Part shown: in pieces, positions 1 through 62,411 of the stretch
Layout: each line of letters opens with the position of its first letter
Position numbering within the stretch: position 1 is the first letter of the stretch
From: an uncultured Rhodocyclaceae bacterium
GTDB lineage: Bacteria; Pseudomonadota; Gammaproteobacteria; Burkholderiales; Rhodocyclaceae
DNA: 64,000 bases
Direction: 5' to 3'
Assembly: GCA_964602565.1 (NCBI GenBank)
Contig: CAZRRI010000004.1
Span: 4,668-68,667 of the forward strand
Made by a program: the position numbers and the translations under genes
The notes under the pieces: model-generated
Told to the model about the DNA's origin: nothing
The model's database searches: none
What the model saw: the letters and a program-made list of their open reading frames with translations, nothing else

Positions 1-104
1 GAGACCCGCACCATGCAGCCGCAGCCACGCGGAAACCGCCACGACCGCGAGAGTCAGCCCCCCCAATACGGCGGCTTCCAGCCGGATGAAGGAATTTCCT
101 GGCG

Positions 105-1148
105 TCACGCCAACGCTGGCGCGACGCGCAACTCGTGGTTAAGCCAGAGCAGGATGCCGAACACGACCATCGAACCTCCCTGATGCGCGGCGCCCAGCGC
201 CACCGGCACGGCCAGGAGCAACGTTGCGATGCCGAGCGCGATCTGCACGGCGACAGCCAGGAGCAGGAGACTGGCGGCAAGGCGGGCCCTAGGCGACGCC
301 GCCGAACAGGCGCGGATTTTCCACCAGAACCAGGGCACCAGGAACGCCAGCGCCCAGGCGCCAAGCCGATGGTCGAACTGAACGGTCGCCATGTTGTTGA
401 AGAAGTTGAGGTACCACGGATCGATCATGAAAATTTCCGGCGGCACGACGTGGCCATTCATCAGCGGGAACGTGTTGTATGCCTTGCCAGCCCGGATGCC
501 CGCCACGAAGCCGCCGGTGACGATCATGTAGAAGACGAGGGCCAGGAGCCAGAAACCCGCGCGCCGCAGGCCGGCGAGCGTCGCGTCGAAAGCCTGTCGG
601 GTCCGTTCGGCGAGCACGTCCAACGCCACCCATACCATCGCGGCGAAAATCAGGAATGCCAGGGACAGGTGAGCCGTCAACCGGTACTGGCTGACTCGCG
701 GGTCGTCCACCAAGCCGCTCTTGACCATGTACCAGCCCATGGCACCCTGAAGTCCCCCCAGGATGAAGATACCGACCAATTTCGGCGTCAGGGATCGATC
801 GAACTTGCCTTTCCAGAGGAAATACAGGAACGGCAGCAGGAAGACCAAGCCGATGGTGCGCCCCAACACGCGATGCCAATACTCCCACCAGAAAATGCCC
901 TTGAACTCATCGAGGTCCATTCGATGGTTGACTTTTTGGTACTCGGGCGTTTTCTTGTACTTTTCGAAGGTTTCCTCCCACTCGGCCTGATTCAGGGGCG
1001 GAAGCGTGCCGACGATCGGCTGCCATTCGACGATCGACAGCCCCGAATGCGTAAGGCGGGTCACACCGCCAACGACCAGCGTCGCAAAAACCATCAGGCT
1101 GCAAATGAACAGCCATAGGGCAATGTGACGACGGGTATGGGCATTCAT
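105..1148 (-). CDS. ctaA: Heme A synthase (COX15/CtaA family)
   Basis: ORF 105..1175. Polytopic membrane protein with the COX15/CtaA N-terminal signature VGGVTRLTHSGLSIVEWQPIVG. Start is ambiguous: TTG at 1175, or ATG at 1148 preceded by GGAAAG. Divergent from a heme-copper oxidase operon. Confidence 0.85.
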   Translation of the reverse strand: MNAHTRRHIALWLFICSLMVFATLVVGGVTRLTHSGLSIVEWQPIVGTLPPLNQAEWEETFEKYKKTPEYQKVNHRMDLDEFKGIFWWEYWHRVLGRTIGLVFLLPFLYFLWKGKFDRSLTPKLVGIFILGGLQGAMGWYMVKSGLVDDPRVSQYRLTAHLSLAFLIFAAMVWVALDVLAERTRQAFDATLAGLRRAGFWLLALVFYMIVTGGFVAGIRAGKAYNTFPLMNGHVVPPEIFMIDPWYLNFFNNMATVQFDHRLGAWALAFLVPWFWWKIRACSAASPRARLAASLLLLAVAVQIALGIATLLLAVPVALGAAHQGGSMVVFGILLWLNHELRVAPALA

Positions 1149-1479
1149 GAGCAACGGCTTTCCGGAAAAATCCAAGGCAACTGTTTCGGCAACCAGACGA
1201 TATCGCGAACCGACGGCGACACGGGAGAATTATATGCGACCGCTTGTCGCGGCAGACAGATGGGTTAGCATGCGGCTACTTGTCGCAGGCCGGTAGTTAA
1301 GTCTGTGCTGATATTGGCGTTTCTTAACCCAGATCAATTGTCGGCATCGAGCACTACGGGTACCATCTTGAGCGTTTAAGCCGGAAAGTCCGCTCAAAGC
1401 ATTCTCCGGCCATTAAACGGCGATCGTCGGTGCGCGACGAGTGCTGACGTTGATTGTTAACCGATGGAGGATATTGGGT

Positions 1480-1623
1480 ATGGCTGACAAAGAAGAAGTG
1501 CCGTTGATGCAGCGGATACTGGACAATCATTTCCTGCTGTTGGCGCTCGGTGTGGTGGTGCCCACGGTCCTTTACACGCTGTGGGGAATCATTGACATCG
1601 TCAGTATTCCCCTCGCCAAGTAA
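1480..1623 (+). CDS. Small single-TM protein, possible ba3-type oxidase small subunit (IIa-like)
   Basis: In-frame ATG at 1480 preceded by GGAGGA. The 47-aa product has one hydrophobic helix (FLLLALGVVVPTVLYTLWGIIDIV). It lies immediately upstream of oxidase subunit II. Function is inferred from position only. Confidence 0.4.
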   Translation: MADKEEVPLMQRILDNHFLLLALGVVVPTVLYTLWGIIDIVSIPLAK

Positions 1624-1650
1624 CCGATCCGTCATACAGGGAGAAAGTAA

Positions 1651-2190
1651 ATGAGCGCAATCCTGCCGCCCGCAGACCGGCTCTGGTGGAAGCAGTCCAT
1701 CGACAAGACCGAGTGGATGTGGATTTTCCTGGCATTCACTTGGGCCATGATCATGTTCTTCATGATGATTTACTGGCACATCAACGGCAAGCAGAACCTT
1801 TCCAACGAGGTTTACAAGACCACGCCGGAAGCTTTCGCGGCGAAGGCGGAAAAGTTCATCGCCGCCAACACCGTCCGAACCGAGACCGACCAGAACATCC
1901 CGGTCGTGACCGTGCCGGATGGCGGCGATGCCTACTTGGTCGCCAGCCTCTGGAAATGGTCTCCGATCCTGGAACTCGAGAAGGGCAAGACCTACAAGAT
2001 TCACCTGTCCTCGATGGACTATCAGCACGGATTCTCCTTGCAGCCGGTTAACATCAACATCCAGGTTCTGCCGGGTTATGAGCACGTCGTCAAGATGACA
2101 CCGACGCAGTCCGGCACCTACGCGATCGTCTGTAACGAATATTGCGGCATCGGCCATCACACGATGCTTGGCCGCATCTATGTGAAATAA
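1651..2190 (+). CDS. Cytochrome c oxidase subunit II, B-family (ba3-type), CuA cupredoxin
   Basis: 179 aa with one N-terminal TM helix. CuA site H-x34-CNEYCGIGHHTM (C-x-E-x-C-x3-H-x2-M). No fused cytochrome c domain. SD GGGAGAAAG precedes the ATG. Confidence 0.9.
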   Translation: MSAILPPADRLWWKQSIDKTEWMWIFLAFTWAMIMFFMMIYWHINGKQNLSNEVYKTTPEAFAAKAEKFIAANTVRTETDQNIPVVTVPDGGDAYLVASLWKWSPILELEKGKTYKIHLSSMDYQHGFSLQPVNINIQVLPGYEHVVKMTPTQSGTYAIVCNEYCGIGHHTMLGRIYVK

Positions 2191-2203
2191 GGGGAACACA
2201 CAG

Positions 2204-3904
2204 ATGGCAACCACTTACCGTACCTGCCCGCGCACCGGGCTGCAATTCGACACCGAGGCCGAAAAGCTGATGCGATGGAATGCCGTGGCTGGCGTTCTTG
2301 CCCTGCTGGTTGGCGGCATCATGGCGCTCGGCGTCATCCTCACTCGCTGGCCGGCAATCAAGCTGCTGCCGCCCGACTGGTTCTACCTGGTGCTGACGGC
2401 GCATGGCGTCGACATGCTGCTGGTCTGGATCATCTTCTTCGAAATGGCCGTTCTGTACTTCGCCTCGTCCACATTATTGCGCTGCCGCCTCGCCACGCCG
2501 AAGATCGCCTGGCTTGGCTTCTGGCTGATGGCGATTGGCGCGGTGATCGGCAACTATGCGGTTCTGGCCGGTGAATCGAGCGTCATGTTCACGTCCTACG
2601 TGCCGATGCAGGCTTCTCCCTGGTTCTACCTCGGGCTGATCCTGTTCGCCGTCGGCGCGTTGATCGGCTGCTTCGTGTTCCTCGGCACCCTGGTCGTGGC
2701 CAAGAAGGAAAGGAGCTACGAAGGCTCGATTCCGCTGGTGACGTTCGGCGCCCTGACTGCCTGCATCATCGCGGTCTTTACCATCCTCACCGGCGCCGGC
2801 ATCCTGGTTCCCACGTTGTTCTGGTCGATGGGGCTGATCAAGGAAATTGATCCGCAACTCTACCGCATGGTCTGGTGGGGCTTGGGGCACTCATCCCAGC
2901 AGATCAACGTGTCCGCCCATGTGGCGATCTGGTATCTGATCGCGGCGGTGGTATTCAACGCGAAGCCGCTGTCGGAGAAGGTCTCCCGCTTCGCTTTCTT
3001 CCTGTACATCCTCTTCCTGCAACTGGCCAGTGCCCACCACCTGCTGTCCGACCCGGGCATGAGCGCGGAGTGGAAGGTTCTCAATACTTCCTACTTCATG
3101 TATTTCGCGGTGTTGGCATCGATGATCCATGGCTTCACGGTTCCCGGCGCCATCGAGGCTGCTCAGCGCAAGAAGGGTTACACCAATGGCATGTTCGAGT
3201 GGCTGCGCAAGGCACCCTGGGGCAACCCGGTGTTCTCCGGCATGTTCCTGTCGCTGGTCAACTTCGGCTTCCTCGGCGGCATTTCCGGGGTCGTGCTGGG
3301 CACCGAACAGTTGAACATGCTGATGCACAACACGTTCTATGTGCCGGGCCATTTCCACGCGACAGTCGTTTCGGGAACCACGCTCGCCTTCATGGCCGTG
3401 ACCTATCTGCTCGTTCCGACGCTGTTCAAGCGCGAGATGATCTCGCCGGGACTTTGCAAGATCCAGCCTTATCTGTTCGGTCTCAGCATGGCCGTCCTGA
3501 CGCTGGTGATGATGGGTGCCGGAACACTTGGCGTCTCGCGCCGGCACTGGGACATGGCGTTCTCGGGCGCACCGTTCCAGTATGAATGGCCGGGCGCCGC
3601 CCACCTGATGATGAGCCTCACCGGTATCTTCGGTGTTCTGGCGATCATCGGTGGCGCGCTGTGGATCTGGCTGGTAGTCGGTTCCCTGCTGTGGGGCAAG
3701 AAGCTGGATGAAGGCAAGCTCAGCGACAAGCCGGTGCCACACGCACCCTTGGACAGCGTCGCCGCCAGCGCCTCGCATACTGGCAGCGCCGAGCATGTCG
3801 CGGTGCCGGGCACTGTGGTCCTGGCAATGCTGCTGCTGGTTTCCTTCGTGCTCTACTACTTCGTGAACTGGAAGTATCTCTCCGAAGTCTGGGCGTTGAG
3901 TTGA
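2204..3904 (+). CDS. Cytochrome c oxidase subunit I, B-family (ba3-type)
   Basis: 566-aa polytopic protein with the heme-copper oxidase histidine set: TAHGVDML (helix II), WGLGHSSQQ (helix VI), SAHHLL (CuB pair), PGHFHATV (helix X H-x-H). Size matches ba3 subunit I. Confidence 0.9.
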   Translation: MATTYRTCPRTGLQFDTEAEKLMRWNAVAGVLALLVGGIMALGVILTRWPAIKLLPPDWFYLVLTAHGVDMLLVWIIFFEMAVLYFASSTLLRCRLATPKIAWLGFWLMAIGAVIGNYAVLAGESSVMFTSYVPMQASPWFYLGLILFAVGALIGCFVFLGTLVVAKKERSYEGSIPLVTFGALTACIIAVFTILTGAGILVPTLFWSMGLIKEIDPQLYRMVWWGLGHSSQQINVSAHVAIWYLIAAVVFNAKPLSEKVSRFAFFLYILFLQLASAHHLLSDPGMSAEWKVLNTSYFMYFAVLASMIHGFTVPGAIEAAQRKKGYTNGMFEWLRKAPWGNPVFSGMFLSLVNFGFLGGISGVVLGTEQLNMLMHNTFYVPGHFHATVVSGTTLAFMAVTYLLVPTLFKREMISPGLCKIQPYLFGLSMAVLTLVMMGAGTLGVSRRHWDMAFSGAPFQYEWPGAAHLMMSLTGIFGVLAIIGGALWIWLVVGSLLWGKKLDEGKLSDKPVPHAPLDSVAASASHTGSAEHVAVPGTVVLAMLLLVSFVLYYFVNWKYLSEVWALS

Positions 3905-3918
3905 CGTTTGCCTGACTT

Positions 3919-3999
3919 CCCCGCCGGCGTCGTACCACCGCCGGCGGGGAGTCTGCTTGAATCGGACTTGAAGAGGAAGTCCGATTCAAGCAGACTCCC
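3919..3999 (+). terminator. Two adjacent strong hairpins downstream of oxidase subunit I
   Basis: Hairpin 1: CCCCGCCGGCG (3919-3929) pairs with CGCCGGCGGGG (3939-3949). Hairpin 2: a perfect 23-bp stem, GGGAGTCTGCTTGAATCGGACTT (3947-3969) with AAGTCCGATTCAAGCAGACTCCC (3977-3999), and a 7-nt loop. No T-tract follows. Confidence 0.5.
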
Positions 4000-4043
4000 A
4001 CTGTTCGCGACCAGTTGGAGCAAGAACATTTACCGCGCACCCC

Positions 4044-4940: not shown

Positions 4941-4959
4941 GCGCAAAACAGGTATTTCG

Positions 4960-5835: not shown

Positions 5836-5857
5836 TGCCAGTCAATTCAACTGGCTC

Positions 5858-7980: not shown

Positions 7981-8025
7981 CAACACTCCCCCACCGAGAA
8001 ACCATTTCGAGCGCGAATCACGACT

Positions 8026-9939: not shown

Positions 9940-9947
9940 TGCTAGCC

Positions 9948-12572: not shown

Positions 12573-12588
12573 AGCCCGCGATCGGCGA

Positions 12589-13899: not shown

Positions 13900-13902
13900 G
13901 CG

Positions 13903-14925: not shown

Positions 14926-14932
14926 TCGGGCC

Positions 14933-15962: not shown

Positions 15963-15965
15963 CGC

Positions 15966-20781: not shown

Positions 20782-22497
20782 TCAGGCGGGAATCTTCCAG
20801 CCGAGATCGCGGTGCCGCGCCAGATGGCGCGGCGTCCATGATGCCGGCGACTTGCGCACGAAGTGCCAGCGGGCGACGTGGTAGCTCGGATCGAAGCCGA
20901 AGAAGTTGCGCCGCATGTGCGCCAGTTCCTCGGCGCGCCAGGCGGCGAGCGGCTTGGCGGCCTCGTCGGCGGCGCGGCGGGCCTGCTTGGCGGCAAGGCG
21001 GGAAGCGAAATCGGCGGCGGACGCCAGTTCGGCGGACCGACGGGCGACATCGGCCAGGAAGGCGGCGCGGTCGCCGGCCAGGCAGGCGTCATAGAAGCCG
21101 GACTTCACGGACGCCCGCGCGGTCATCGGCAGGCGGTGCTGCATGATCGCGGCCGCGCCCTCGGCGCCGACGCGCGGCGGCAGCAGGTAGGTCCAGAACT
21201 CCGAGCCGAAGAGGTTGCCCATGTTCTTGTAGTGCGGATTGAGCATGACGCCGTCGCGCACCCAGACCTGATCGGCGGCGCGAGCCAGGAAGCAGCCGCC
21301 GGCGCCGGCGTTGCCGCGCAGCGCCGCCACCGTCAGCTTGTCGTCGCAGCGCAGGATGGCTTCGGCCAGGTCGTCGATAGCGTTGATGTTGGCCCAGGAT
21401 TCGTCGGCCGGGCTGGCGGCCTGCTCGATCAGATTCAGGTGGATGCCGTTCGACCAGAAGTCGTCGCCGCCCATCAGCACCAGCACGCGGGTGGGGCGGC
21501 TCTTCGCCCACTCGAAGGCGGCGCGCAGGCGCTGGCAATGCGCCGTGCCCATGGCGCCGTTGTAGAACTCGAAGTACAGGAAACCGGCCTCGCCGGCTTC
21601 CTCGTAGCGGATGTCCCGCCATGTGGCGTGATCGGCGCTCCACCAGCCTTCCAGCGGCAGTTCCGGCAGACTCGCCGCCTGCTCGGCGAAAGCGATCGTG
21701 GCCGGCAGCTTGATGCCGTCCTTGCGCTTGACGTGGCCGATCCAGACCGCGCCGTCGGCCGTGGCGCGCAGCAAGGCGGTCTCGCGGCGGCCGATGAGCG
21801 CGCCGGGTGGCGTGTCGCCATGGCTGACTTTTGCGCCATTGGCTTCGGGCCAGGCGTCGAACAGGTGGCAGGGCTCGCCGAACAGCTCGTCGGCGACGCC
21901 GGGAAAGCCGTCGGCGGCGTCGATCTTCCTCAGCACGATATCGCTGGTATCGCGCCGCCAGTCGATGGCGCGGTCGGCCTGGCGCATCAGTAGGCGCAAC
22001 CGGCCGCGCCCGCGGGCTTCGGCGAGCGGCGTCGGCTTGCCGCCGGCCGCGAATCTTTCCACCGCCTCGATCAGGGCCTGCGCCGCCGCCTCGGTCACTT
22101 CGTTGCGATAGAGGCTGGCCTTGCGGCCGCGATGCATCGGAAAGTTCGCCGTGGCCCAGACCGGCCCCGCGTCCATCCCGGCTTCGGCCTGCAACACCGT
22201 CACGCCCCACTCCGCCTCGCCCTCCTGGATCGCCCAGTCGAGCGCCGAGGGTCCGCGGTCGCCGACGATGCCCGGATGCACGACGAGACAGACATGCTTC
22301 GACCAAATGCTTTCGGGAATCGCCCGGCGCAGGTAGGGCGCGACGATCAGGTCCGGCCGGAACAGTTCGACCGCCTGTTCGGCGACGGCATCGTTGATGT
22401 CGAACTCGATGGATATTTCGTGGCCGCGCGCCGACAGCTCGGCATGGAGCCGTTGCGTCAGGCTGTTGAAGCCGTGGGTCAGGAACAGGATGCGCAT
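20782..22497 (-). CDS. hypX: Hydrogenase maturation factor HypX/HoxX (formyltransferase + crotonase-like domains)
   Basis: MRILFLTHGFNSLTQRLH...VVHPGIVGDRGPSALDWAI is a formyl-transferase-like N-terminus, with an enoyl-CoA hydratase-like C-terminus. The ATG at 22497 overlaps the hypE stop (ATGA). Confidence 0.85.
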   Translation of the reverse strand: MRILFLTHGFNSLTQRLHAELSARGHEISIEFDINDAVAEQAVELFRPDLIVAPYLRRAIPESIWSKHVCLVVHPGIVGDRGPSALDWAIQEGEAEWGVTVLQAEAGMDAGPVWATANFPMHRGRKASLYRNEVTEAAAQALIEAVERFAAGGKPTPLAEARGRGRLRLLMRQADRAIDWRRDTSDIVLRKIDAADGFPGVADELFGEPCHLFDAWPEANGAKVSHGDTPPGALIGRRETALLRATADGAVWIGHVKRKDGIKLPATIAFAEQAASLPELPLEGWWSADHATWRDIRYEEAGEAGFLYFEFYNGAMGTAHCQRLRAAFEWAKSRPTRVLVLMGGDDFWSNGIHLNLIEQAASPADESWANINAIDDLAEAILRCDDKLTVAALRGNAGAGGCFLARAADQVWVRDGVMLNPHYKNMGNLFGSEFWTYLLPPRVGAEGAAAIMQHRLPMTARASVKSGFYDACLAGDRAAFLADVARRSAELASAADFASRLAAKQARRAADEAAKPLAAWRAEELAHMRRNFFGFDPSYHVARWHFVRKSPASWTPRHLARHRDLGWKIPA

Positions 22498-23555
22498 CAA
22501 CAAATCCTTGGCAGCTGTTCCCCGGTCAGCCAGTCGACAATGCGCCGGCCGCCGAATCCCGTCGTCATCTGCACGAAGTGGTGGTCGTCGGCGAGCACGG
22601 CGCCGATCCGCGCGGTGCGCGCGCCTTGCGGATGGGCGCGCATCGCCGCCAGCAGCTTGTCCGCATCGGCCGCGGCGACGATGGCGATCAGCTTGCCCTC
22701 GTTGGCGACGTAGAGCGGGTCGAGGCCGAGGAATTCGCAGGCCGCCGCGACTTCCGGGTTCACTGGAATGGCCGCCTCGTCGAGCATCATGCCGACGCCG
22801 GACTGGCGGGCGATCTCGTTGAGCGTGGTGGCCAGGCCGCCGCGCGTCGGGTCGCGCAGGCAGCGGATGTCGGCGCCGGTGGCGAGCATCGTTTCGACCA
22901 AGCCGTGCAGCGCCGCCGTGTCCGAGACGATGGGCGCCGAAAAACCAAGACTTTCCCGCTGCGCCATGATCGCCATGCCGTGGTCGCCGATGGTGCCGGA
23001 GAGCAGGATGACGTCGCCCGGCCGCGCGCGGTCGCCCGAGAGCACGACACCCTCGGGCAGCACGCCGACGCCGGTGGTGGTGATGAACACGCCGTCGGCC
23101 TTGCCCGCCTCGACCACCTTGGTGTCGCCGGTCACCACCGCCACGCCCGCCGCCTTCGCGGCCTTCGCCATCGACTCGACGATCCTCGCCAGATCGGCGA
23201 GCGGAAAACCCTCTTCGAGGATGAAGCCCGCCGCCAGATAGAGCGGCTTCGCGCCCATCACCGCCACGTCGTTGACTGTGCCATGCACCGACAGGCAGCC
23301 GATGTCGCCGCCGGGAAAGAACAGCGGCGAGACGACGTGGCCGTCGCAGGACATCACCAGCCGGCCGCCCAAAGTCAGTGGTGGCAGGACGCCACCGTCG
23401 TTGCCCTGGCGCAGGAACTCGTTGTCGAGGTGCCTGGCGAACAGCTCCTCGATCAGCTGGGCCATCGCCCGGCCGCCGGAGCCGTGCGTCATGTCGACGC
23501 GGCCATGCTTGAGATCGAGGGGACGGACGTAGTTTTCTCTGATTGGTTTAGACAT
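22497..23555 (-). CDS. hypE: Hydrogenase maturation protein HypE
   Basis: Start at ATG 23555 (MSKPIRENY...HGSGGRAM). PurM-like fold. C-terminal PRIC motif. Confidence 0.9.
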   Translation of the reverse strand: MSKPIRENYVRPLDLKHGRVDMTHGSGGRAMAQLIEELFARHLDNEFLRQGNDGGVLPPLTLGGRLVMSCDGHVVSPLFFPGGDIGCLSVHGTVNDVAVMGAKPLYLAAGFILEEGFPLADLARIVESMAKAAKAAGVAVVTGDTKVVEAGKADGVFITTTGVGVLPEGVVLSGDRARPGDVILLSGTIGDHGMAIMAQRESLGFSAPIVSDTAALHGLVETMLATGADIRCLRDPTRGGLATTLNEIARQSGVGMMLDEAAIPVNPEVAAACEFLGLDPLYVANEGKLIAIVAAADADKLLAAMRAHPQGARTARIGAVLADDHHFVQMTTGFGGRRIVDWLTGEQLPRIC

Positions 23556-28026: not shown

Positions 28027-28595
28027 GCCGCCACGCCCTCCGCAAGCTCCAGTTCGGCCTGGCGGCGCCAGTGGCCGGCATGCACTTCATCGCGCGGCGT
28101 GACGATGATGCCGAGGCGCGCGAGTTCATCCACGAGCATCCGCACCATGTCGTCCAGGCCCGCCGCCGCCGGAGCGCTCAAGCCCAGGCGGTTCTCCAGC
28201 ACATGCGGCACCATGCCGATGATGGCGACATGACGCGGCGTTTCGCCCTTGAACGCCAGCAGGGCGAGCAGGTCCGAGAGTCCCAACTGGTGATTGGACA
28301 GCTTGGTCTGGAAGAAGGCGCGGATTTCCTCGTTGGCGATGCGCACCAGCGTTCCCGCCGGACGATCGGCGTTCACGGCGTCGGCGATGATCAGGCAATC
28401 GGCGTTGCGCATCGGCTCGAAAAGCTCCATGCCGGTGGTGCCGCCATCCATCAGCCGGACGTTCGCCGGCAGATCGTAGCGCGCCTCCAGTTCCTCGACG
28501 GCGCGCACGCCGATACCCTCGTCCTGCATGAGCACGTTGCCCATGCCGATCACCAGAACACCGGCGTCCCGCCGCGACTGACTTTCGCCAGCCAC
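28017..28595 (-). CDS. hybD: Hydrogenase maturation endopeptidase (HybD/HoxM type)
   Basis: VLVIGMGNVLMQDEGIGVRAVEEL motif. The GTG start immediately follows the large-subunit stop. Confidence 0.85.
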   Translation of the reverse strand: MAGESQSRRDAGVLVIGMGNVLMQDEGIGVRAVEELEARYDLPANVRLMDGGTTGMELFEPMRNADCLIIADAVNADRPAGTLVRIANEEIRAFFQTKLSNHQLGLSDLLALLAFKGETPRHVAIIGMVPHVLENRLGLSAPAAAGLDDMVRMLVDELARLGIIVTPRDEVHAGHWRRQAELELAEGVAACA

Positions 28596-38017: not shown

Positions 38018-38095
38018 TGCGCCCCTCGGTGGGACGGGCACGCGAATTAGTCGGAGACAAGGAGGGAAAGCTTACAACGGTGGGCGCCGTAGCCT

Positions 38096-38171
38096 GGCGT
38101 ATCGCCGCGGCTGACTTTCGAAAGGACTGGCCCGGCGTATCGCCACGGCTGACTTTCGGTAGGAATGGGCC
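38096..38171 (+). repeat. 38-bp tandem repeat (2 full copies plus a degenerate third) in the divergent intergenic region
   Basis: Unit 1 at 38096-38133 is GGCGTATCGCCGCGGCTGACTTTCGAAAGGACTGGCCC. Unit 2 at 38134-38171 is GGCGTATCGCCACGGCTGACTTTCGGTAGGAATGGGCC. A roughly 50%-identical third unit follows. Confidence 0.85.
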
Positions 38172-38472
38172 GACGTATTCAAACGGTACTGTAAGGAAAT
38201 ACCTGGGTCTCCGACCAATCGCTCAGCGGGCCAACACCTGCATGACCGCGAACCCACCACGAGAAAACTCACCATGAACAGGACCCTGACCGCTGCTTCC
38301 CTCGGCGGCGCCCTCGCCGACGCCTACCCGACGCACGGCGTCCGGGCGGCCGTGCTGCTCTATCTCGTCGCCCGGGGGCCGGGTACGACGTCGCTGGATC
38401 ATTTGCTTGCATGGCGGCTGCATGCTTTGTGAAATAATGGCCGCTCCGCCGGCCTGCCCGTCGTCGCCCGCC

Positions 38473-39263: not shown

Positions 39264-40715
39264 TCAGTGCACGGTACAGACCATGCAGGGATCGAAGGAG
39301 CGGACGACGTGCTGGACGGCGACCGGCGCCCTGCCATCGGCGCCGAGCGGAATGCCGGCCAGCGCGCGTTCGAGCGCGCCGGGCTTGCCCGCGCTGTCGC
39401 GCGGCGAGAAATTCCACGTGGTGGGCGCGATGATCTGGTAGTTGTGGATGCGGCCACGCCGGATGGACAGCCAATGGCCGAGTGAGCCGCGCGCGGCTTC
39501 GACGAGGCCGGCGCTCTCGGCCTCGGCGGGCAATTCGCCCTCGACGGAGAAGGCTTCTCCCGGACGCAGGGCCGCGGCCCAGGTTTCCATGGCGGGAAGC
39601 AGGCGCGCGACTTCGAGCAGGCGCGCGACGACGCGCGCTTCGACGCCACCGCCATCGCGGGCAACGAGGTCGCGGGCAAGCGGATGACCGGCGACGAGCT
39701 GCCGCGCCAGCGCGCCGGTCTCGACCACCTCGCCGCCCAGGCGTGGCGCCTTGCACCAGGTGTAGGCGGATTCCTTGTCGGCGATGGGCAGCGTCGAGCC
39801 GCGCGCGGGTTCGAGCGGCGCCCCGGCGTCGGCATACCAGGCGTGGCTGACGTCCTCGGCGATCCGCGCCGGGTCGAGCAGCGCCGGGCCGCCGGCCCAG
39901 ACGCCCGCCGGCCACCAGCGGCCGCCGCCTGTCCCCTCCTGCTCGTAGGCGCCGTAGCTCATGAAGGCGACGCCGGCATGGCCGAGCGCCGAAAGGTTCA
40001 GCGCCCGCGAGGCGCGCAGGAACAGGCCGAAGTCGCTCCCGCCATGCCGGTCGGCCCAGGCCGCCAGTTCGTCCGCCGAGGCGATGGCCGCGACGGCTTC
40101 GAGCACGTCACCGAAGGTCGTGCGTTCGAGAAAGCGGCGGAAGTCGCGCAACACGCGCAGCAGGCGCAGGCGCTCGGAGGCATTGACCGGATGCGTCGAG
40201 CCACCCGGCTGCAATGTCAGGGTATGCGGCCACTTGCCGGCCAAAAGGCCCATGGCGCGCATCCAGCCGGCACGCGCGGGCAGGAAATCGGCGGCCGCGC
40301 TGCCGGTCACGGCCTTGAAGCGCGCCGAGGTGGCGTGCCACCACGGCTGACTTTCGTAGCAGTCGCGCGCGAAGTCGGGCATGAAGAACAGATAGAAATG
40401 GGTGACGTGGTCGGCAAGGTTCTCGACCGCGTGGATCAGGTTCGCCGCCAGCCTGCCGTTGTCCGGCGGCTTGATGCCCATGGCGGCGGCCAGCGCCCGT
40501 GACGCGGCGGCCGACTGCGACACCGAGCAGATGCCGCAGATGCGCGGCACGAAGACCAGCGCATCCATGGGCGCCTTGCCTTGCAGGATCTGCTCGAAGC
40601 CCCGATAGAGCGAGCTTTTCACGCGCGCCTCGCGCACGCGCCCGTCGGCGATATCGAGGATCACTTCGAGATCGCCCTCGACACGGTTGAACGGTCCCAC
40701 CACCAATCGGCTCAT
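39264..40715 (-). CDS. hoxC: Regulatory (H2-sensing) [NiFe] hydrogenase large subunit HoxC/HupV
   Basis: VGPFNRVEGDLEV and RICGICSVSQ. The protein ends exactly at DPCMVCTVH with no C-terminal extension, typical of sensor hydrogenases. Start at ATG 40715; the alternative GTG at 40757 lies inside the duplicated junction. Confidence 0.85.
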   Translation of the reverse strand: MSRLVVGPFNRVEGDLEVILDIADGRVREARVKSSLYRGFEQILQGKAPMDALVFVPRICGICSVSQSAAASRALAAAMGIKPPDNGRLAANLIHAVENLADHVTHFYLFFMPDFARDCYESQPWWHATSARFKAVTGSAAADFLPARAGWMRAMGLLAGKWPHTLTLQPGGSTHPVNASERLRLLRVLRDFRRFLERTTFGDVLEAVAAIASADELAAWADRHGGSDFGLFLRASRALNLSALGHAGVAFMSYGAYEQEGTGGGRWWPAGVWAGGPALLDPARIAEDVSHAWYADAGAPLEPARGSTLPIADKESAYTWCKAPRLGGEVVETGALARQLVAGHPLARDLVARDGGGVEARVVARLLEVARLLPAMETWAAALRPGEAFSVEGELPAEAESAGLVEAARGSLGHWLSIRRGRIHNYQIIAPTTWNFSPRDSAGKPGALERALAGIPLGADGRAPVAVQHVVRSFDPCMVCTVH

Positions 40716-43455: not shown

Positions 43456-45345
43456 ATGACCGACGCACGGTCCAGCCCGTTGATCGACATTCTCGACCGC
43501 CACCGCCACGACGGCACCCGGCTGATGCAGATCCTGCGCGAGGCGCAGGAGGCATTGGGTTGGCTGTCGCCCGAGACGATCACCGCGATCGCGGCCGACA
43601 TCGGCTGGCCGCGCGCCAAGGTGGAAGGCACGGCCGGCTTCTACAGCTTCTTCCACACGCGGCCGATGGGCGAGTACCGCGTGCTCTGGAGCGACAACAT
43701 CACCGATCGCATGCTCGGCAACCTGGACCTCATGCAGGCGATGTGCCAGAAGCTCTGGCTGGAACCGGGCCGCGTCTCGGAGGATGGCCTGGTCAGTGTC
43801 GACACCACATCCTGCACGGGCATGTGCGACCAGGGCCCGGCGGTGCTGGTCAATTACCGCGCCATCCCGCGCATGACGCCCGCCCGCGTCGAGCACATGG
43901 TCGAACTCATCCGCACGCGCACGCCGCTCGCCGAATGGCCGGTGGAGTGGTTCGCCATCGAGGACAACATCCGCCGCGCCGACGTTCTGCTTGGCAACGA
44001 CATGATGCCCGGCGATGCGCTCAAGGTCTGCCTGGCGCGCGGCGCCGATCAGCCCAGGATCGAGACCGCCTCCAACGAGCGCTCCTTCCGCGAAGCCATC
44101 CACACCGGCGATGCCGGGCCGGGCGCGACGCTGGACGAGATCAAGAGATCCGGACTGCGCGGTCGCGGCGGCGCCGGATTCACCACCGGCCTCAAGTGGG
44201 AAGCCTGCCGCAACGCGCGCGGAACGGGGGAAAACGCGGCGCACTATGTCATCTGCAATGCCGACGAGGGCGAGCCCGGTACCTTCAAGGACCGCGTGCT
44301 GCTGACGCGGCAGGCGAATCTCGTCTTCGAGGGCATGACGGTCGCCGCCTACGTCATCGGCGCCGGCAAGGGCTACCTCTATCTGCGCGGCGAATACCGC
44401 TACCTGCTGGAGCCGCTGGAGTCAGTCCTGGCGACACGCCGGCGCGCGGGGCTGCTGGGCAGGAACATCCTCGACGTTCCGGGCTTCGACTTCGACATCG
44501 AGATCCACCTCGGTGCCGGCGCCTATGTCTGCGGCGAGGAATCAGCGCTGATCGAATCGCTCGAAGGCAAGCGCGGCGTGCCGCGCAACCGGCCGCCGTA
44601 TCCCGTCACCAACGGCTTCCTCAACCAACCGACCGTGGTGAACAACGTCGAGACCTTCGCCGCCGCGGCGCTGGTCGCGCTCAACGGCGGCGACTGGTAC
44701 CGGAGCCTGGGCACGCCCCGCTCCACCGGCACCAAGATCCTGTCGGTCTCCGGCGATTGCGAACGGCCGGGCATCTACGAATACCCCTTCGGTGTCACGG
44801 TGCGCCAGGTGCTCGCCGACTGCGGGGCCAGGGATTCGCAAGCCGTGCAGATTTCCGGCCCGTCGGGCATCTGTATCGGCCCGGACGAATTCGACCGCCG
44901 CATCGCCTTCGAGGACATCCCGACGGCCGGCGCTTTCATGATCTTCGACATCCGGCGCGACATCTTCGAAGTCGTGCGCAATTTCGTTCACTTCTTCGCG
45001 CACGAATCCTGCGGCTTCTGCACGCCCTGCCGCGTCGGCACGACGCTGCTCAAGAACCTGATGGACAAGATCGCGGCCGGCCACGGCACGCGCTACGACA
45101 TCAACGAGATCTACAACCTGAACCGCGTGCTGCAATCGGCCGCTCACTGCGGCCTCGGCCACACGGCCTGCAATCCGCTCGTGCATACGCTGGAGAAGTT
45201 CCGCCCGGCCTACGAGCGCCGCCTGAAGTCGCTCGAATTCCAGCCCGCCTTCGACCTCGACGCGGCACTATCGGAAGCGCGCCAGATGACCGGGCGCGAC
45301 GACGCCGCGGCCCACCTGGCGACCGAACCGGAGACCTCGCGATGA
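43456..45345 (+). CDS. hoxF: NAD-reducing hydrogenase diaphorase subunit HoxF (NuoE+NuoF-like)
   Basis: 629 aa. NuoE-like N-terminus. GLRGRGGAGFTTGLKWE (FMN/NADH site). ESCGFCTPCRVG [4Fe-4S]. Confidence 0.9.
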   Translation: MTDARSSPLIDILDRHRHDGTRLMQILREAQEALGWLSPETITAIAADIGWPRAKVEGTAGFYSFFHTRPMGEYRVLWSDNITDRMLGNLDLMQAMCQKLWLEPGRVSEDGLVSVDTTSCTGMCDQGPAVLVNYRAIPRMTPARVEHMVELIRTRTPLAEWPVEWFAIEDNIRRADVLLGNDMMPGDALKVCLARGADQPRIETASNERSFREAIHTGDAGPGATLDEIKRSGLRGRGGAGFTTGLKWEACRNARGTGENAAHYVICNADEGEPGTFKDRVLLTRQANLVFEGMTVAAYVIGAGKGYLYLRGEYRYLLEPLESVLATRRRAGLLGRNILDVPGFDFDIEIHLGAGAYVCGEESALIESLEGKRGVPRNRPPYPVTNGFLNQPTVVNNVETFAAAALVALNGGDWYRSLGTPRSTGTKILSVSGDCERPGIYEYPFGVTVRQVLADCGARDSQAVQISGPSGICIGPDEFDRRIAFEDIPTAGAFMIFDIRRDIFEVVRNFVHFFAHESCGFCTPCRVGTTLLKNLMDKIAAGHGTRYDINEIYNLNRVLQSAAHCGLGHTACNPLVHTLEKFRPAYERRLKSLEFQPAFDLDAALSEARQMTGRDDAAAHLATEPETSR

Positions 45346-53802: not shown

Positions 53803-55779
53803 ATGACGCTGCGCGGCCGCACGCTGACCGAGTGGTCGCTGCTTTGCCTCCTGCTGGTCGGGCTGGCGGGCCTGTCGGCCTGGCAGGGCTGGCTGTGGCG
53901 GGTCGACCACCTGCTGTATGACGCCGGGCTGCCGCTGCTGTCCCGGCAGGCGCCCGCCGACATCGTCATCGTCGCCATCGACGAAGCCAGCCTGGCGCGC
54001 ATCGGCCGCTGGCCATGGCGGCGGGCGGTGCACGCCACCCTGCTGCACAAGCTGGTCCAGGCCGAGGTGGCGGTCATCGGCTTCGACATCATCCTCAACG
54101 AGCCCGACACCGACGATCCCGATGGCGGAGCCTTGCTGGCGGCGGCCATCGCCCGCCATGGCCGCGTCGCGCTGCCCGTGATCCCGGCGCCGACCGGCGC
54201 CGCCCAGATCGGCACGGGGCGGCCGCTGGCCACCTTTTCCCGGGCGGCGGCGGCGCTCGGGCACATCGAAATGCCCATCGACGCCGACGGCATCATTCGC
54301 GGCCTGTATCTGCGGGCGGGCGACGGCGCGACGATACATTCGCACCTGGCGCTGGCGATGCTGTCGCTCGCCGACCCGGCGCGCGCCGCCCCCTACCTGT
54401 CCGCCGCGGCCGCGGGCGACGTCCCGGGGCCGGCCGACTGGCGGCGCGACAGTTGGCGCCACCTGCGTTTTGCCGGGCCGCCGGGCAGCTATCGGACCGT
54501 TTCCTACGTGGATGTCCTCACCGGCGCGGTCGACGCCCAACAGTTGCGTGGCGCGCTGGTCATCGTCGGCGCCACCGCCGCCGGACTCGGCGATCTCCAC
54601 GCCACCCCCATGTCGGCTTCCGGCCAGCCGATGGCCGGGGCCGAGATCATCGCCAACGCGCTGAATGCCCTGCGTGCCGGCGAAACCATCGTCTGGCTCG
54701 ACCGCGCCACCACCACGGCGATCTCGGCATTCATGGTTCTGCTGTTGCTGATCGGCCTGCTCTACCTGTCGCCACGCACCGGCCTTGCCTGGTCGGCCGG
54801 CGTCGGCCTCGCCGCCGTCGCCGTCGGCGTGCTCCAGCTGCGCTGGGGCCAGCCCTGGCTGCCGCCCGGCGCCATCCTGCTCGGCGCCGCGCTGGCCTAC
54901 CCGCTGTGGAGCTGGCGGCGGCTCGAGGCGACCCAGCGCTTCATGGACGAGGAACTGCGCCTGCTGCGCGACACCGACCCGGCCACCCCCGCCGCCGAGG
55001 TCATCGGGGTCACCGAGGCCGCCGAGGCCGGCCTCGATCCGATCGACCACCGCATCGCCATCATCCGCGCCGCCGCCGAGCGGCAACGCCTGACACAGAA
55101 GGCGCGCGAGGACATGGTGCGCTTCATCTCGCACGACATCCGGTCGGTGCTGGTGTCGATCATCACCCTCATCGAGGGCGCCGCCGGGCGCGACGGCAAG
55201 GACCGCGGCCTCGAGCGCATCGGCCGCTACGCCCAGTACGCGCTGGACCTGGCCGACGACTTTTCCCGGCTGAAAAAGGCCGAGACCGTCGATCCGCAGA
55301 CGTTCCGCGAAGTCGATCTCGCCGCGCTGGCGCAGGAGGCGGCCGACGAAATGTGGCCGCAGGCCGATGCCAGGCGCATCACCATCGCCGTCGACGACGC
55401 CGGCGGCCAGGACGCGCTGGTGCTGGGCGACCCGTCGCTGCTGCGGCGGGTATTGACCAATCTGGTCGGCAATGCCATCAAGTACAGCCCGCCGGACACG
55501 ACCGTGCGGCTGGTGCTTGCCGAGGACGGCAAGTGGCGCGAGATCGCCGTCGTCGACGAAGGCTACGGCATTCCGGCCAGCCAGATGGACAGGCTGTTCA
55601 CCCGGCATGCGCGCATTTCCCGTCCCGGCCAGCCCGACCAGCCGGGCATCGGCCTCGGCCTGGTGATCGTCAAGACCATCGTCGATCGCCACGGCGGCGG
55701 CGTCTCGGTCGAAAGCACGCCCGGCGCGGGCTCCACGTTCCGCGTCCGCCTGCCGCGCGCGGCGTCCCGCCACGGCTGA
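53803..55779 (+). CDS. CHASE2-domain sensor histidine kinase
   Basis: CHASE2 region (IVIVAIDEASLARIGRWPWRR), TM helices, H-box FISHDIRS and a HATPase domain (GIGLGLVIV). Confidence 0.85.
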   Translation: MTLRGRTLTEWSLLCLLLVGLAGLSAWQGWLWRVDHLLYDAGLPLLSRQAPADIVIVAIDEASLARIGRWPWRRAVHATLLHKLVQAEVAVIGFDIILNEPDTDDPDGGALLAAAIARHGRVALPVIPAPTGAAQIGTGRPLATFSRAAAALGHIEMPIDADGIIRGLYLRAGDGATIHSHLALAMLSLADPARAAPYLSAAAAGDVPGPADWRRDSWRHLRFAGPPGSYRTVSYVDVLTGAVDAQQLRGALVIVGATAAGLGDLHATPMSASGQPMAGAEIIANALNALRAGETIVWLDRATTTAISAFMVLLLLIGLLYLSPRTGLAWSAGVGLAAVAVGVLQLRWGQPWLPPGAILLGAALAYPLWSWRRLEATQRFMDEELRLLRDTDPATPAAEVIGVTEAAEAGLDPIDHRIAIIRAAAERQRLTQKAREDMVRFISHDIRSVLVSIITLIEGAAGRDGKDRGLERIGRYAQYALDLADDFSRLKKAETVDPQTFREVDLAALAQEAADEMWPQADARRITIAVDDAGGQDALVLGDPSLLRRVLTNLVGNAIKYSPPDTTVRLVLAEDGKWREIAVVDEGYGIPASQMDRLFTRHARISRPGQPDQPGIGLGLVIVKTIVDRHGGGVSVESTPGAGSTFRVRLPRAASRHG

Positions 55780-55815
55780 CTTTCGCGCCCCGATGGCGGC
55801 CACGAGGAAACGACC

Positions 55816-60023: not shown

Positions 60024-60025
60024 AC

Positions 60026-60664
60026 ATGACCGACAGAATTCACGTACTCATCGCCGACGACCACGCCATCGTGCGTCAGGGGCTCAAGCAGATACTTTCG
60101 GAAACGGAGGACCTGGTGGTCACCGGCGAGGCCGACGACGGCGTCGAGGCCCTGCAACTGGCCCGCCAGCAACCCTGGGACGTCGTCCTGCTCGATGTCT
60201 CGATGCCCAACCGCAACGGCATCGACACCCTCAAGCAGTTGAAGCGGGAATTCCCCAGGCTGCCGGTGCTGATCCTCTCGATGCACCCCGAGGAGCAATA
60301 CGCCATCCGCGCGCTCAAGGCCGGCGCCTCGGGCTACCTGACCAAGCAGAGCGCGCCCGAACAACTGGTGACGGCGATCCGCCAGGTCGCCTGCGGCAAG
60401 AAATATGTCAGCCCCACCGTGGCCATGCAGCTGGCCGACGCCATCGCCAACGACACCGAGCAGCCGCCGCACGAGCTGCTCTCGGACCGCGAGTACGAAG
60501 TGCTCAAGCTGATCTCCGCCGGCAAGACGCTGACCCAGATCGCCGAGGAACTGAATCTCGCCGTCGCCACCATCAGCACCTTCCGCGCCCGCATCCTCGC
60601 CAAGCTCGGCTTGTCCAGCACCGCCGAGCTGATCCGCTACGGCCTCGAGCGCGGCCTCGTTTGA
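60026..60664 (+). CDS. NarL/FixJ-family response regulator (LuxR HTH)
   Basis: VLIADDHAIVRQGL...LLDVSMPNRNG. C-terminal LSDREYEVLKLISAGKTLTQIAEELNLAVATISTFR. Confidence 0.9.
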   Translation: MTDRIHVLIADDHAIVRQGLKQILSETEDLVVTGEADDGVEALQLARQQPWDVVLLDVSMPNRNGIDTLKQLKREFPRLPVLILSMHPEEQYAIRALKAGASGYLTKQSAPEQLVTAIRQVACGKKYVSPTVAMQLADAIANDTEQPPHELLSDREYEVLKLISAGKTLTQIAEELNLAVATISTFRARILAKLGLSSTAELIRYGLERGLV

Positions 60665-60671
60665 AACGACC

Positions 60672-62411
60672 ATGGCCGACGTCAAGCATCCCTCCGAACT
60701 CGCCCGCGAAACCCTGCGCCAGCTGGCCATGCGCCGGGTGCCGCCGACGCCGGACAACTATCGCATGCTGTACCACGAGATCGCCGGCACCACCGCCGCC
60801 GAGGCTTTTCCCGAACGCGCGCTCAAGCACCTCGTCGCCGGCCTGCCGAAGACCACGCCCGAGCAGCTGCGCTTCGGCCGGCAGTTCGAGGCGGCCGTCG
60901 GCGAAGGCAGCTGGGATGGGCTGAAGACCTCGCTGGCCGACCTGCTGGCCAAGGGCGCGGCGGCGCCGCCGAACTGGGGCGGCCTCATCCGCGACCTGGT
61001 CGGCCAGTACGAAGCCCGCCACGCCGGCGTCACCGGCGCCAAGAAGCGCGAAGCGCTCGACCACGTCCTGTCGGCCTCGGGCACGCCCGAGGTCCTGTTC
61101 GGCCGCTTGCAGGCGATGGTACGAAACTGGTCGCAAAGCGCCGCGGCCGAACCGGCGGAGAGCGGCGCCGGCGACGACGGGGCCGGCGCAAAGTCAGCCG
61201 TGGCGGCACGCCAGCTCAACCCCGAATTGCAGGAACTGGTCGCCAGCCTGCTCGACAACGCCCTCGGGGTCATACTGGCCGACGCGCCCGACCTGGCCGG
61301 CGAGGCCGGCGGCCTGGCCGCCGACATCCGCGCCGCCGCCTCCGCCGACCAGATCGGCGCCTGCGCCGGCCGGCTGAAGAAGTTCGGCTACCGCCTGCAG
61401 TTCGTCGCCGAGGACAAGACCGAGCTGCGCGGCGCGCTGGTTCATCTGCTGCAACTGATCGTCGAGAACATCGGCGAGCTGGTGGTGGACGACCAGTGGC
61501 TGCAAGGACAGGTGTCGCTGGTGCGCGACCTGCTCGGCCAGCCGCTCGACCTGCGCCGGCTCGACGATGTCGAGCGCCGGCTCAAGGACCTGATCTACAA
61601 GCAGAGCGCGCTGAAGAAGAGCCTCACCGACGCCCAGGCGCAACTGAAGGACATGCTGGCGACCTTCGTGGACCGGCTGGCCGGCTTCGCCTCCACCACC
61701 GGCGATTACCACGACCGCATCGGCGCCTGCGCCCAAAAGATCAGCAAGGCCAGCGACATCGGCCAGCTTTCCGACGTGCTGCAAGTGGTCATGCAGGAAA
61801 CCCGCGCCGTGCAGCTCGCGGCGCAGCGCTCGCGCGACGAGTTGATCGAGATGCGCGACCGCGTGCGCGAGGCGGAACGCGAAGTCGTCCGCCTGCGGGA
61901 GGAACTGGCCCATGCCAGCGAGATGGTGCGCACCGACGCACTGACCGGCGCGCTCAATCGCCAGGGCATGGACGAGGCGATCGAGCGCGAAGTGGCGCGC
62001 GCCCGCCGCAGGAACTCGCCGCTGTCGGTGGCGCTGCTCGACATCGACAACTTCAAGAAGCTCAACGACACCCATGGCCACGATGCCGGCGACCAGGCGC
62101 TGGTGCATCTGGCCCAGGTGGTGAGCGAAACCCTGCGCCCGACCGACACCCTGGCCCGCTACGGCGGCGAGGAATTCGTCATCGTGCTGGCCGACACCCG
62201 CCTCGACGACGGCGTGCAGGCGATGGTGCGCGTCCAGCGCGAACTGACACGCAAGTTCTTCCTGCACAGAAACGAGAAGATGCTGATCACCTTCAGTTGC
62301 GGCGTCGCCGAACTCGCCGCCGGCGAATCGCCCGCCGACGCCGTCAAGCGCGCCGACCAGGCCATGTACCTGGCCAAGCGCGCCGGCAAGAACCGCGTCG
62401 TGGCGGCCTGA
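60672..62411 (+). CDS. Diguanylate cyclase (GGDEF) with long coiled-coil N-terminal region
   Basis: RYGGEEFVIVL active site. RxxD-like I-site context. No EAL domain. Confidence 0.85.
   Translation: MADVKHPSELARETLRQLAMRRVPPTPDNYRMLYHEIAGTTAAEAFPERALKHLVAGLPKTTPEQLRFGRQFEAAVGEGSWDGLKTSLADLLAKGAAAPPNWGGLIRDLVGQYEARHAGVTGAKKREALDHVLSASGTPEVLFGRLQAMVRNWSQSAAAEPAESGAGDDGAGAKSAVAARQLNPELQELVASLLDNALGVILADAPDLAGEAGGLAADIRAAASADQIGACAGRLKKFGYRLQFVAEDKTELRGALVHLLQLIVENIGELVVDDQWLQGQVSLVRDLLGQPLDLRRLDDVERRLKDLIYKQSALKKSLTDAQAQLKDMLATFVDRLAGFASTTGDYHDRIGACAQKISKASDIGQLSDVLQVVMQETRAVQLAAQRSRDELIEMRDRVREAEREVVRLREELAHASEMVRTDALTGALNRQGMDEAIEREVARARRRNSPLSVALLDIDNFKKLNDTHGHDAGDQALVHLAQVVSETLRPTDTLARYGGEEFVIVLADTRLDDGVQAMVRVQRELTRKFFLHRNEKMLITFSCGVAELAAGESPADAVKRADQAMYLAKRAGKNRVVAA

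Follow-up and report, generated by a model that had tools for sequence, protein, structure and literature searches.

The 64-kb window studied here (the whole stretch of 64,000 nucleotides, from an uncultured Rhodocyclaceae bacterium) carries repeated copies of a 25-nt motif, in and between genes for hydrogenases and other functions. This motif is one dialect (hereafter dialect 1) of a lineage-specific, genome-wide recognition word of 25 bp. The initial annotation of the window had compared it to the DNA uptake sequences (DUS) of Neisseriaceae and the uptake signal sequences (USS) of Pasteurellaceae, and its genomic signatures bear out this resemblance. As for function, the analogy suggests, with a confidence that we would put at even, a DUS/USS-like DNA uptake word that would be kept by biased uptake and recombination. 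We favor this reading because the abundance of the word, its placement, its frame bias, its terminator pairs, its build-up in permissive protein segments, its persistence at orthologous sites and its dialects match those of uptake sequences. The latter have been described as lying in and between genes, avoiding the reading frame in which they would create a stop, forming inverted repeats in terminators and existing as dialects.

Abundance, anatomy and dialects of the word

The degenerate 25-mer of the initial annotation (GGCGTRYCGCCACGGCTGACTTTCG) was searched in the window with up to three mismatches and found 10 times, versus 0.00 times in 100 dinucleotide-preserving shuffles. The exact 13-mer CGGCTGACTTTCG is present four times, as had been counted, and six times if one mismatch is allowed (0.15 expected). 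We also used a position weight matrix (PWM), built from related genomes and applied with a threshold of 12 bits, together with a second score, the number of mismatches at 20 core positions. Each of the two scores recognizes 12 genuine copies in the window (four perfect, four with one mismatch, two with two and two with three). The density in the window is 0.20 copies per kb. Hence, the over-representation first noticed in the window holds, with 10-12 copies versus none in shuffles. Two weaker copies that had been proposed (48-72 and 26468-26492) fall below the 12-bit threshold and, since real and shuffled counts are alike at six core mismatches (107 versus 86), they are treated as chance matches.

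Outside the window, one genome for each of 185,579 species was scanned with the pattern GGCGTNNCGCCNNGGCTGACT, the matches listed covering at least 102 stretches. Among these listed matches, nearly all lie in about 10 species-level metagenome-assembled genomes (MAGs) labelled Rhodocyclaceae, Rhodocyclales or Betaproteobacteria. This group of carriers, described as Rhodocyclaceae/Sterolibacteriaceae species with one common consensus, originates from activated sludge, groundwater, fen, creek and rock biofilm. The consensus is common to all carrier species, with small differences at positions 6, 7 and 24, and many 8-kb blocks hold two or three copies. The single matches found in other phyla score poorly at the positions that were not scanned and look like chance. 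In 688,630 bp of clade DNA plus the window, the PWM recognizes 218 copies, versus about none in triplet shuffles. The numbers of copies with zero to four mismatches are 92, 57, 28, 20 and 16, versus 0, 0, 0, 0 and 1.4 in shuffles. After dropping the copy that selected each block, the density is 0.11-0.27 per kb, which extrapolates to about 600-1,200 copies per genome of 4-5 Mb, i.e. about one per 4-9 kb. The frequency of the word is orders of magnitude above the shuffled expectation. Moreover, local duplication does not confine the word to the window, copies being found throughout about 10 species-level genomes. It also lies outside annotated repeat families: no known repeat or RNA family and no published sequence matches it, scans of the window for Rfam families and tRNAs yielded none and a literature search for the motif strings returned no occurrence in a relevant context.

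A binding site for a regulator specific to the hydrogenase cluster is ruled out, as the word turns up in arbitrary 8-kb blocks from many genomes. Furthermore, four short contigs (L025, L026, L003 and L036), binned as Rhodoferax, Steroidobacter, 'beta proteobacterium' and Burkholderiaceae, hold one high-scoring dialect-1 copy each. These contigs may be mis-binned DNA of the carrier clade and the word could therefore be used as a binning check.

The anatomy of the word was deduced from an alignment of 110 copies, coming from lineages with at least four copies each and from the window itself. The dialect-1 consensus is Y-GGCGT-RY-CGCC-AC-GGCTGACTTT-y (24-25 nt). Conservation sets in abruptly at the Y (never G), one base 5' of GGCGT, and stops behind TTT; within 30 nt on each side, the flanks contain zero information. 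To avoid circularity, one half of the word was anchored and the other half was read. About 95% of the 154 occurrences of the 9-mer GGCTGACTT are preceded by the full 5' half, and 139 of the 184 occurrences of GGCGTNNCGCC continue into the 3' half, those that do not being at about chance level according to base-composition arithmetic. As separate pieces, the two halves of the dialect-1 word are not above chance. Therefore, the unit is the whole 24-25-mer, and its information content is at least about 29 bits.

The initial annotation had reported variability at every third base and considered a codon register. On 154-218 copies, the variable positions are instead 0, 6, 7, 13 and 24. Since they have no period of three, the idea of a codon register fails and a coding ancestry of the motif is not supported. 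The annotation had also stated that the motif has no dyad symmetry. This is inexact, as a 4-bp dyad (GGCG-NNN-CGCC) exists. A functional hairpin is nevertheless ruled out: the dyad lacks covariation, and dialect 2 disrupts it. No covariation that would extend or support the stem was found, positions 0 and 12 included, and the associations that involve position 24 seem to reflect species differences.

Dialect 2 was found in two relatives (L119 and L120, 79-80% HoxC identity) that lack the word of the window and repeat instead a related word, YGCCGTCYCGCCAGCGCCGACTTTY. A scan of metagenomes for this second word yielded at least 120 stretches (704 kb). Among the matches listed, about 92% of the 221 occurrences of the 9-mer GCCGACTTT lie within the full dialect-2 word, and half-anchoring reveals the same sharp boundaries and the same length as for dialect 1. 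The dialects differ at positions 2, 6, 13, 14 and 17. At position 2, G becomes C without a compensating change at position 10, so that the small dyad is not kept between dialects. Each dialect excludes the other, and they belong to neighboring lineages: the dialect-1 set (781 kb) contains 202 dialect-1 and no dialect-2 copies, and the dialect-2 set (745 kb) contains 221 dialect-2 and five marginal dialect-1 copies. Frame usage and bias are similar in both. Furthermore, an orthologous site in hypE carries GGCGTCCTGCCACCACTGACTTTG in the window and GCCGTCCTGCCAACGCCGACTTCC in L119, i.e. the version proper to each lineage. Therefore, the dialects have a common origin in one system, from which they diverged by substitution. 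No third dialect is visible in L108, L109 or L121 (21 kb of each).

Two unusual copies concern dialect 2. In hypX of L108 (around 7230-7320), the dialect-2 halves GCCGTCCTGCCAGC and GCGCCGACTTTC are 39 nt apart, while L119 and L120 are intact at this place; either an insertion broke an old copy or a deletion made the copy in the other lineages. A genome named Sulfurisoma (L361, around 4364, strand -) carries a hybrid copy, CGGCGTGCCGCCATCGCCGACTTTC, whose 5' half is like dialect 1 and whose 3' half is like dialect 2. Position 2 may therefore define the dialect less strictly than positions 13, 14 and 17 do.

Placement of the copies and their origin at orthologous sites

Copies of the word have no preferred orientation: 108 are on the + strand and 110 on the - strand, the counts relative to local GC skew are 86 and 76, and neighboring copies of the same block have the same orientation in 61 cases and the opposite one in 59. 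No polarity is seen within 8-kb blocks. DUS and USS likewise have no strand polarity. These data bear on the hypothesis of a polar chromosome signal, involved in recombination or segregation, such as Chi or the FtsK-orienting polar sequences (KOPS). As the present word, these signals are over-represented, lineage-specific and also intragenic, and they are chromosomal 'self' signals of sorts. However, Chi and KOPS are 8-mers strongly co-oriented with replication, whereas the word is three times longer and randomly oriented in all three counts. Hence, such a signal is hardly credible here.

Genes were called with our own simple codon-usage gene finder, by which 90% of dialect-1 DNA is coding and 82% of dialect-2 DNA, where calls are poorer. 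About 65% of the copies (142) are intragenic and 76 (35%) are intergenic or at a gene edge. Placement is therefore mixed with an intergenic excess of about 3.5-fold, 35% of the copies being located in the 10% of DNA that is non-coding. Among the intragenic copies, 92 are antisense (24, 56 and 12 in frames 0, 1 and 2) and 50 are sense (31, 19 and 0). The sense frame that is never used is the one that would read an internal TGA. By our own arithmetic, the sense to antisense ratio is near the 2:3 expected if only the stop-creating frame is forbidden (chi-square about 1.4). Moreover, the density is lowest in genes with the strongest codon bias. The earlier view that the motif is neither coding-driven nor similar to repetitive extragenic palindromes (REP) is supported.

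Outside genes, the copies are mostly located after gene ends, with 4.3 copies per kb in convergent spacers, 1.1 in co-directional spacers and 0.5 in divergent spacers, versus 0.23 in coding DNA. Intergenic copies are also nearer to the consensus (median 38.7 bits versus about 36). About six close inverted pairs are found among the 218 copies. Those in (-,+) order fold into long hairpins (-45 to -60 kcal/mol) bordered by runs of A and T, similar to bidirectional terminators. Such hairpins, as well as the enrichment downstream of genes that peaks in convergent spacers, would suit a transcript-level or structural element (terminator, RNA stabilizer or REP-like hairpin) whose intragenic copies would be by-products. 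We nevertheless consider this element very improbable, given that only about six of the 218 copies are in close inverted pairs, that the 65% of copies located in genes are found in both orientations relative to transcription, that a single copy has only a 4-bp stem (without covariation and broken in dialect 2) and that Rfam gives no match.

The neighborhood of hoxC was compared across relatives at graded distance. The hoxC copy is found at the exact orthologous position in five genomes with 85-99% HoxC identity and is absent, without any indel, from genomes at 82%, 80%, 79%, 76% and 69% identity. The site is GCAAGCCAGACGTGGTGGCCGCTTG in the motif-free L108 and GAAAGTCAGCCGTGGTGGCACGCCA in carriers, so that the protein segment SQTWWPLV becomes SQPWWHAT. 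The sole non-consensus base of the copy in carriers is the one that keeps a Trp codon. Thus, hoxC is the clearest case: the word was built there by point substitutions that change amino acids, overriding amino-acid conservation. The hypF site (GVSRRLTF versus GIRTVASF) differs likewise by substitutions only, without indel relative to hypF of Denitratisoma, and the ackA copy aligns residue for residue, without insertion, with a variable segment of solved acetate kinases.

Other copies of the window have orthologs of differing quality, in L103, L104 and L106 for the hoxF copy and in L104 for the hoxH copy; the copy at the hupL/hupD junction has an ortholog in L104 only. Between species, core positions are 96% identical versus 90.4% for the 200-nt flanks (Fisher p about 0.006, which is approximate since the comparisons have a common phylogeny). 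Several sites are thus common to species, with the core conserved above its flanks. Two PWM matches in HycI (L103 6843 and L107 6411) are weak, are driven by the coding of a conserved DGGT motif and are not copies.

At further coding sites, the length of the protein differs. The hypX copy is located in a linker six codons longer than in genomes without the motif, the hupD copy in an N-terminal extension of 5-11 codons, and hypE is two codons longer than in Denitratisoma. These extra lengths vary and never equal that of the element. We read them as a preference of the copies for length-variable, unconstrained protein segments rather than as the arrival of a mobile insertion. In particular, an in-frame mini-insertion of 24 nt (8 codons) is ruled out, as ackA, hoxC and hypF are indel-free and the number of codons varies elsewhere.

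A selfish sequence could also be spread by a dedicated enzyme (HUH nuclease or REP-associated tyrosine transposase (RAYT)-like) or by short-patch gene conversion from master copies. Its anatomy would be a short GC hairpin (GGCG-NNN-CGCC) followed by a conserved 12-nt tail, and the extra codons found at some sites (hypX, +6; N-terminus of hupD, +5 to +11) would agree with it. So would local tandem amplification, which is seen in a 38-nt repeat of the window and in a 316-nt array of the IMG/VR contig L259. The latter (883-2238) holds five dialect-2 copies; successive copies are separated by 316 nt up to the fourth, and by 385 nt between the fourth and the fifth. This spacing points to tandem repetition of a longer unit. 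We nevertheless regard such a spread as improbable. At hoxC, hypF and ackA, copies are indel-free, position-by-position compromises with the protein sequence; elsewhere, insertion lengths vary without ever matching the element. The stem has no covariation and is broken without compensation in dialect 2, and the variable positions keep consistent R/Y preferences, unlike a random decay from a master copy. Known elements of this type, i.e. REP, bacterial interspersed mosaic elements (BIME), REP doublets forming hairpins (REPIN) and miniature inverted-repeat transposable elements (MITEs), are also dispersed short repeats, with some inverted pairs in spacers. However, they are extragenic, have a conserved hairpin or terminal inverted repeats and spread by insertion, whereas 65% of the copies of the word are intragenic, its dyad is not conserved between dialects and several copies are found without indel.

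Possible uptake of DNA or intracellular reading

According to the favored uptake reading, the type IV pilus machinery that takes up DNA would have a surface receptor that binds double-stranded DNA preferentially if it carries the word. Word-bearing fragments would enter the cell and recombine into the chromosome, and mutations improving the match would therefore be transmitted more often. The word would build up wherever coding tolerates it and would then be held against decay.

The closest known system is that of the DUS, recognized in Neisseriaceae by the minor pilin ComP. Both concern Betaproteobacteria and a non-palindromic genome-wide word present in both orientations, genic and intergenic, enriched after genes, with terminator-like inverted pairs, stop-frame avoidance, conservation at orthologous sites and mutually exclusive lineage dialects that are a few bases apart. 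Both also have a CTG/CTGA-like core, a resemblance that is superficial only. However, DUS are 10-12 bp long versus 24-25 bp here, without demonstrable sequence homology; their receptor is known, whereas none was found in or linked to the carrier clade; and dialect 2 of the word occurs in phage contigs. DUS also reach a density of about 1 per kb, versus about 1 per 4-9 kb for the word. The USS are likewise abundant oriented words, mostly intragenic, with a reading-frame bias, dialects and a mismatch spectrum dominated by perfect and one-off copies, and they arise through point substitutions where the protein is poorly conserved. Unlike the uniformly specified GC-rich 25-mer described here, whose function is predicted, they have a 9-bp core with AT-rich flanks in a low-GC genome, and their lineage differs at the phylum level. 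Outside uptake systems, HIP1 of cyanobacteria (GCGATCGC) is also hyper-abundant in coding and non-coding DNA, and its function is unsettled; it is an 8-bp palindrome, whereas the word is an asymmetric 25-mer.

The nearest named relatives of the GyrB of a dialect-2 contig are a Sulfurisoma sp. MAG and Ca. Nitricoxidivorans perseverans (87%), Sulfurisoma sediminicola (86%), a Sterolibacteriaceae MAG (84%) and Sulfuricystis thermophila (83%); the GyrB tentatively assigned to the dialect-1 MAG JAHJPX is 82% identical to it. The genome labelled Sulfurisoma sediminicola, which presumably comes from a cultured organism given its species name without MAG label, has four dialect-2 copies in 22.5 kb of its dnaA-gyrB region (0, 2, 2 and 3 mismatches). 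Motif-bearing contigs encode a typical type IVa major pilin, a PilT-family ATPase scoring above the NCBIfam cut-off and a ComF/GntX-like protein scoring below it. The ComF/GntX-like gene of JAHJPX (L012, 386-1084, strand -) itself holds a motif copy, read RRLATADF. In about 1 Mb of DNA per dialect, neither comEC, comEA, pilQ nor dprA was seen, and a pilin regular expression had no match in the dialect-1 DNA analyzed.

Concerning mobile DNA, 2.9 million IMG/VR contigs gave nine matches to dialect 1, all with chance-like scores, and hence no true copy. PLSDB plasmids contain no real match to either dialect. In the isolated phage genomes of INPHARED, where only dialect 2 was searched, no real match was found either. 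In the window, positions 1-20000 have a lower GC content (0.59-0.65 versus 0.65-0.72 elsewhere) and no strong motif copy. This part encodes proteins for cytochrome oxidase assembly and subunits (CtaA, COX1, UbiA/CtaB) and cytochrome b, and may be more recently acquired or simply more constrained. Neisserial DUS have been reported to be absent from recently acquired DNA.

According to a literature survey of late 2025, uptake sequences have been reported from only two families, Neisseriaceae and Pasteurellaceae. Our own literature search found no report that ties them to Rhodocyclaceae, Sulfurisoma or Sulfuritalea. Several points weigh against uptake. No report was found that ties the carriers to competence. 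In this survey, uptake sequences are 9-12 nt long; the word, with 24-25 bp, is about twice as long as any of them and does not have their short 9-12-nt core. A search with the soluble domain of ComP from N. meningitidis, beyond whose reach distant relatives lie, retrieved only Neisseriaceae-type proteins. PilT, PilA and ComF-like genes are near-universal in Proteobacteria and are therefore weak evidence. At three of the six coding sites examined, the protein is 2-11 codons longer than in outgroups. Furthermore, densities come mostly from 8-kb blocks of MAGs that were chosen for at least one copy and annotated with our own simple gene finder, and the polarity test is limited to these blocks and the 64-kb window. 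Finally, dialect 2 is frequent in IMG/VR, with an excess density of 0.066 per kb versus 0.135 in metagenome contigs among the matches listed. Some of these IMG/VR contigs are clearly phages (anti-repressor, endolysin, RecT/RecE) and carry dialect-2 copies inside phage genes. Therefore, the word is not excluded from resident phages, and dialect 2 is a poorer fit to a pure uptake model.

The same copies, which reach about half the chromosomal density in genuine phage genes, are what one would expect if a phage benefits from bearing a 'self' mark of its host. They thus agree with another hypothesis, which we hold only tentatively: the word could be an array of binding sites for an intracellular, lineage-specific DNA-binding system, selected in cis and unrelated to uptake. 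The reader might be a chromosome-organizing protein, or a nuclease or defense system recognizing a non-polar 'self' marker. Its length of 25 bp and its high information would suit a large or multi-domain DNA binder, the two dialects imply co-evolution with a protein, and core positions are more conserved than flanks. On the other hand, no candidate protein was identified, and the tolerance of copies in whatever frame or orientation, with a scatter that lacks positional logic, fits a drive better than site-by-site selection. To our knowledge, no intracellular system uses a non-palindromic and non-polar word at about 1 per 5 kb. The Chi, KOPS, matS, parS, SlmA and Noc sites are short, polar, palindromic or rare, which also counts against an intracellular reader. 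The more precise proposal of an undescribed intracellular reader of a non-polar 25-bp 'self' mark, resident phages included, whose dialects would track the reader protein, seems to us slightly more doubtful still.

Copies and genes of the window, and meaning of the word

Most copies listed in the initial annotation are real, and the gene names given there (hypX, hypE, hybD/hupD, hoxC, hoxF, CHASE2 kinase, ackA and GGDEF gene) are confirmed by Pfam. The first dialect-1 copy, TGGCGTGTCGCCATGGCTGACTTTT (21808..21832, +; PWM 41.8), is inside hypX (20782-22497, -), with the antisense reading KVSHGDTP. It is followed by a degenerate copy, TGGCGTCCTGCCACCACTGACTTTG (23370..23394, -; PWM 27.1), inside hypE, with the sense reading GVLPPLTL. 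Inside the short-form hypF, CGGCGTCTCGCGACGCCTGACTTTC (25332-25356, -; PWM 30.0) has the sense reading GVSRRLTF. This good copy had been overlooked, as had TGGCGTGCCGCCATGGCTGACTATG (48047-48071, -; PWM 34.1), which lies antisense near the 3' end of hoxH (46639-48120, +). At the hupL/hupD junction, CGGCGTCCCGCCGCGACTGACTTTC (28562..28586, +; PWM 31.8) is located in the N-terminal extension of the hupD open reading frame (ORF). In hoxC (39264-40748, -), TGGCGTGCCACCACGGCTGACTTTC (40331..40355, +; PWM 38.1) has the antisense reading ESQPWWHA, and a decayed copy, CGGCGTGTCGCCAGGACTGACTCCA (44417..44441, -; PWM 21.5), is inside hoxF.

The 3' end of the CHASE2 histidine kinase gene carries CGGCGTCCCGCCACGGCTGACTTTC (55760..55784, +; PWM 37.7). 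As had been proposed, the motif supplies the stop of this gene, the TGA at 55777-55779 ending the ORF 53803-55779; there is no exact sequence of this kinase on record. The ackA copy, which had been placed at 58325-58349, is in fact CGGCGTGTCGCCACGGCTGACTCTG at 58315-58339 (+; PWM 35.3), with the sense reading RRVATADS. Finally, TGGCGTGCCGCCACGGCTGACTTTG (61189..61213, -; PWM 39.5) lies antisense inside the GGDEF gene (60672-62411, +).

The remaining two copies are intergenic. TGGCGTATCGCCGCGGCTGACTTTC (38095..38119, +; PWM 37.4) and CGGCGTATCGCCACGGCTGACTTTC (38133..38157, +; PWM 40.9), the latter having been the reference copy of the initial annotation, belong to units 1 and 2 of a 38-nt tandem repeat (38092..38178; 2.3 units, 85% match). 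Each full unit has one motif copy, and this local duplication is able to multiply the word. Between hoxJ (33879-35252) and hoxC, about 4 kb of the window (35300-39260) are inserted with respect to the syntenic locus L104. Four or five small genes are found in this insert, one of them a flavodoxin-like/FMN-reductase gene (38473-39060), together with the tandem motif pair. The hydrogenase region has matches of only 72-77% with PLSDB plasmids, among which no source plasmid was found.

Other genes of the window or its relatives are also unusual. Two encode fusion proteins, one made of cytochrome b, a 4Fe-4S dicluster and an FlpD (MvhD-like) domain (5858-7486) and the other of cytochrome b, a 2Fe-2S domain and an FAD/NAD-binding reductase (8026-9939). 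A helix-turn-helix regulator with a WYL/WCX domain (13903-14925) is encoded between the cytochrome genes and the nickel transporter. HypF (24925-26517) is a short form that has only the Kae1-like C-terminal domains, without the acylphosphatase, zinc-finger and YrdC domains; Denitratisoma (L109) and L121 have a full-length HypF. In the motif-free relative L108 (1516-3777), a CRISPR array of about 30 identical repeats adjoins cas4-cas1-cas2, just upstream of the hyp genes.

For the carrier clade itself, the word provides a sharp marker for binning and for the detection of foreign DNA in these MAGs. The two dialects could serve to find the receptor by co-variation and, if Sulfurisoma sediminicola is indeed cultured, the hypothesis is testable at the bench. 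Since the word is about twice as long as known uptake sequences, a function in uptake would imply a different or composite receptor. We know of no genome-wide signal with a comparable length, asymmetry and density that is also devoid of polarity. Should uptake be ruled out, the word would represent a genome-wide signal of a kind not known so far. If uptake is true, the word would represent a third case of sequence-specific recognition of self DNA in natural transformation. Both families known so far to have uptake sequences, Neisseriaceae and Pasteurellaceae, are host-associated. The hosts of the word would be free-living sulfur- or hydrogen-oxidizing Betaproteobacteria of wastewater, groundwater and sediment, and uptake-sequence systems would thus be no peculiarity of mucosal commensals.

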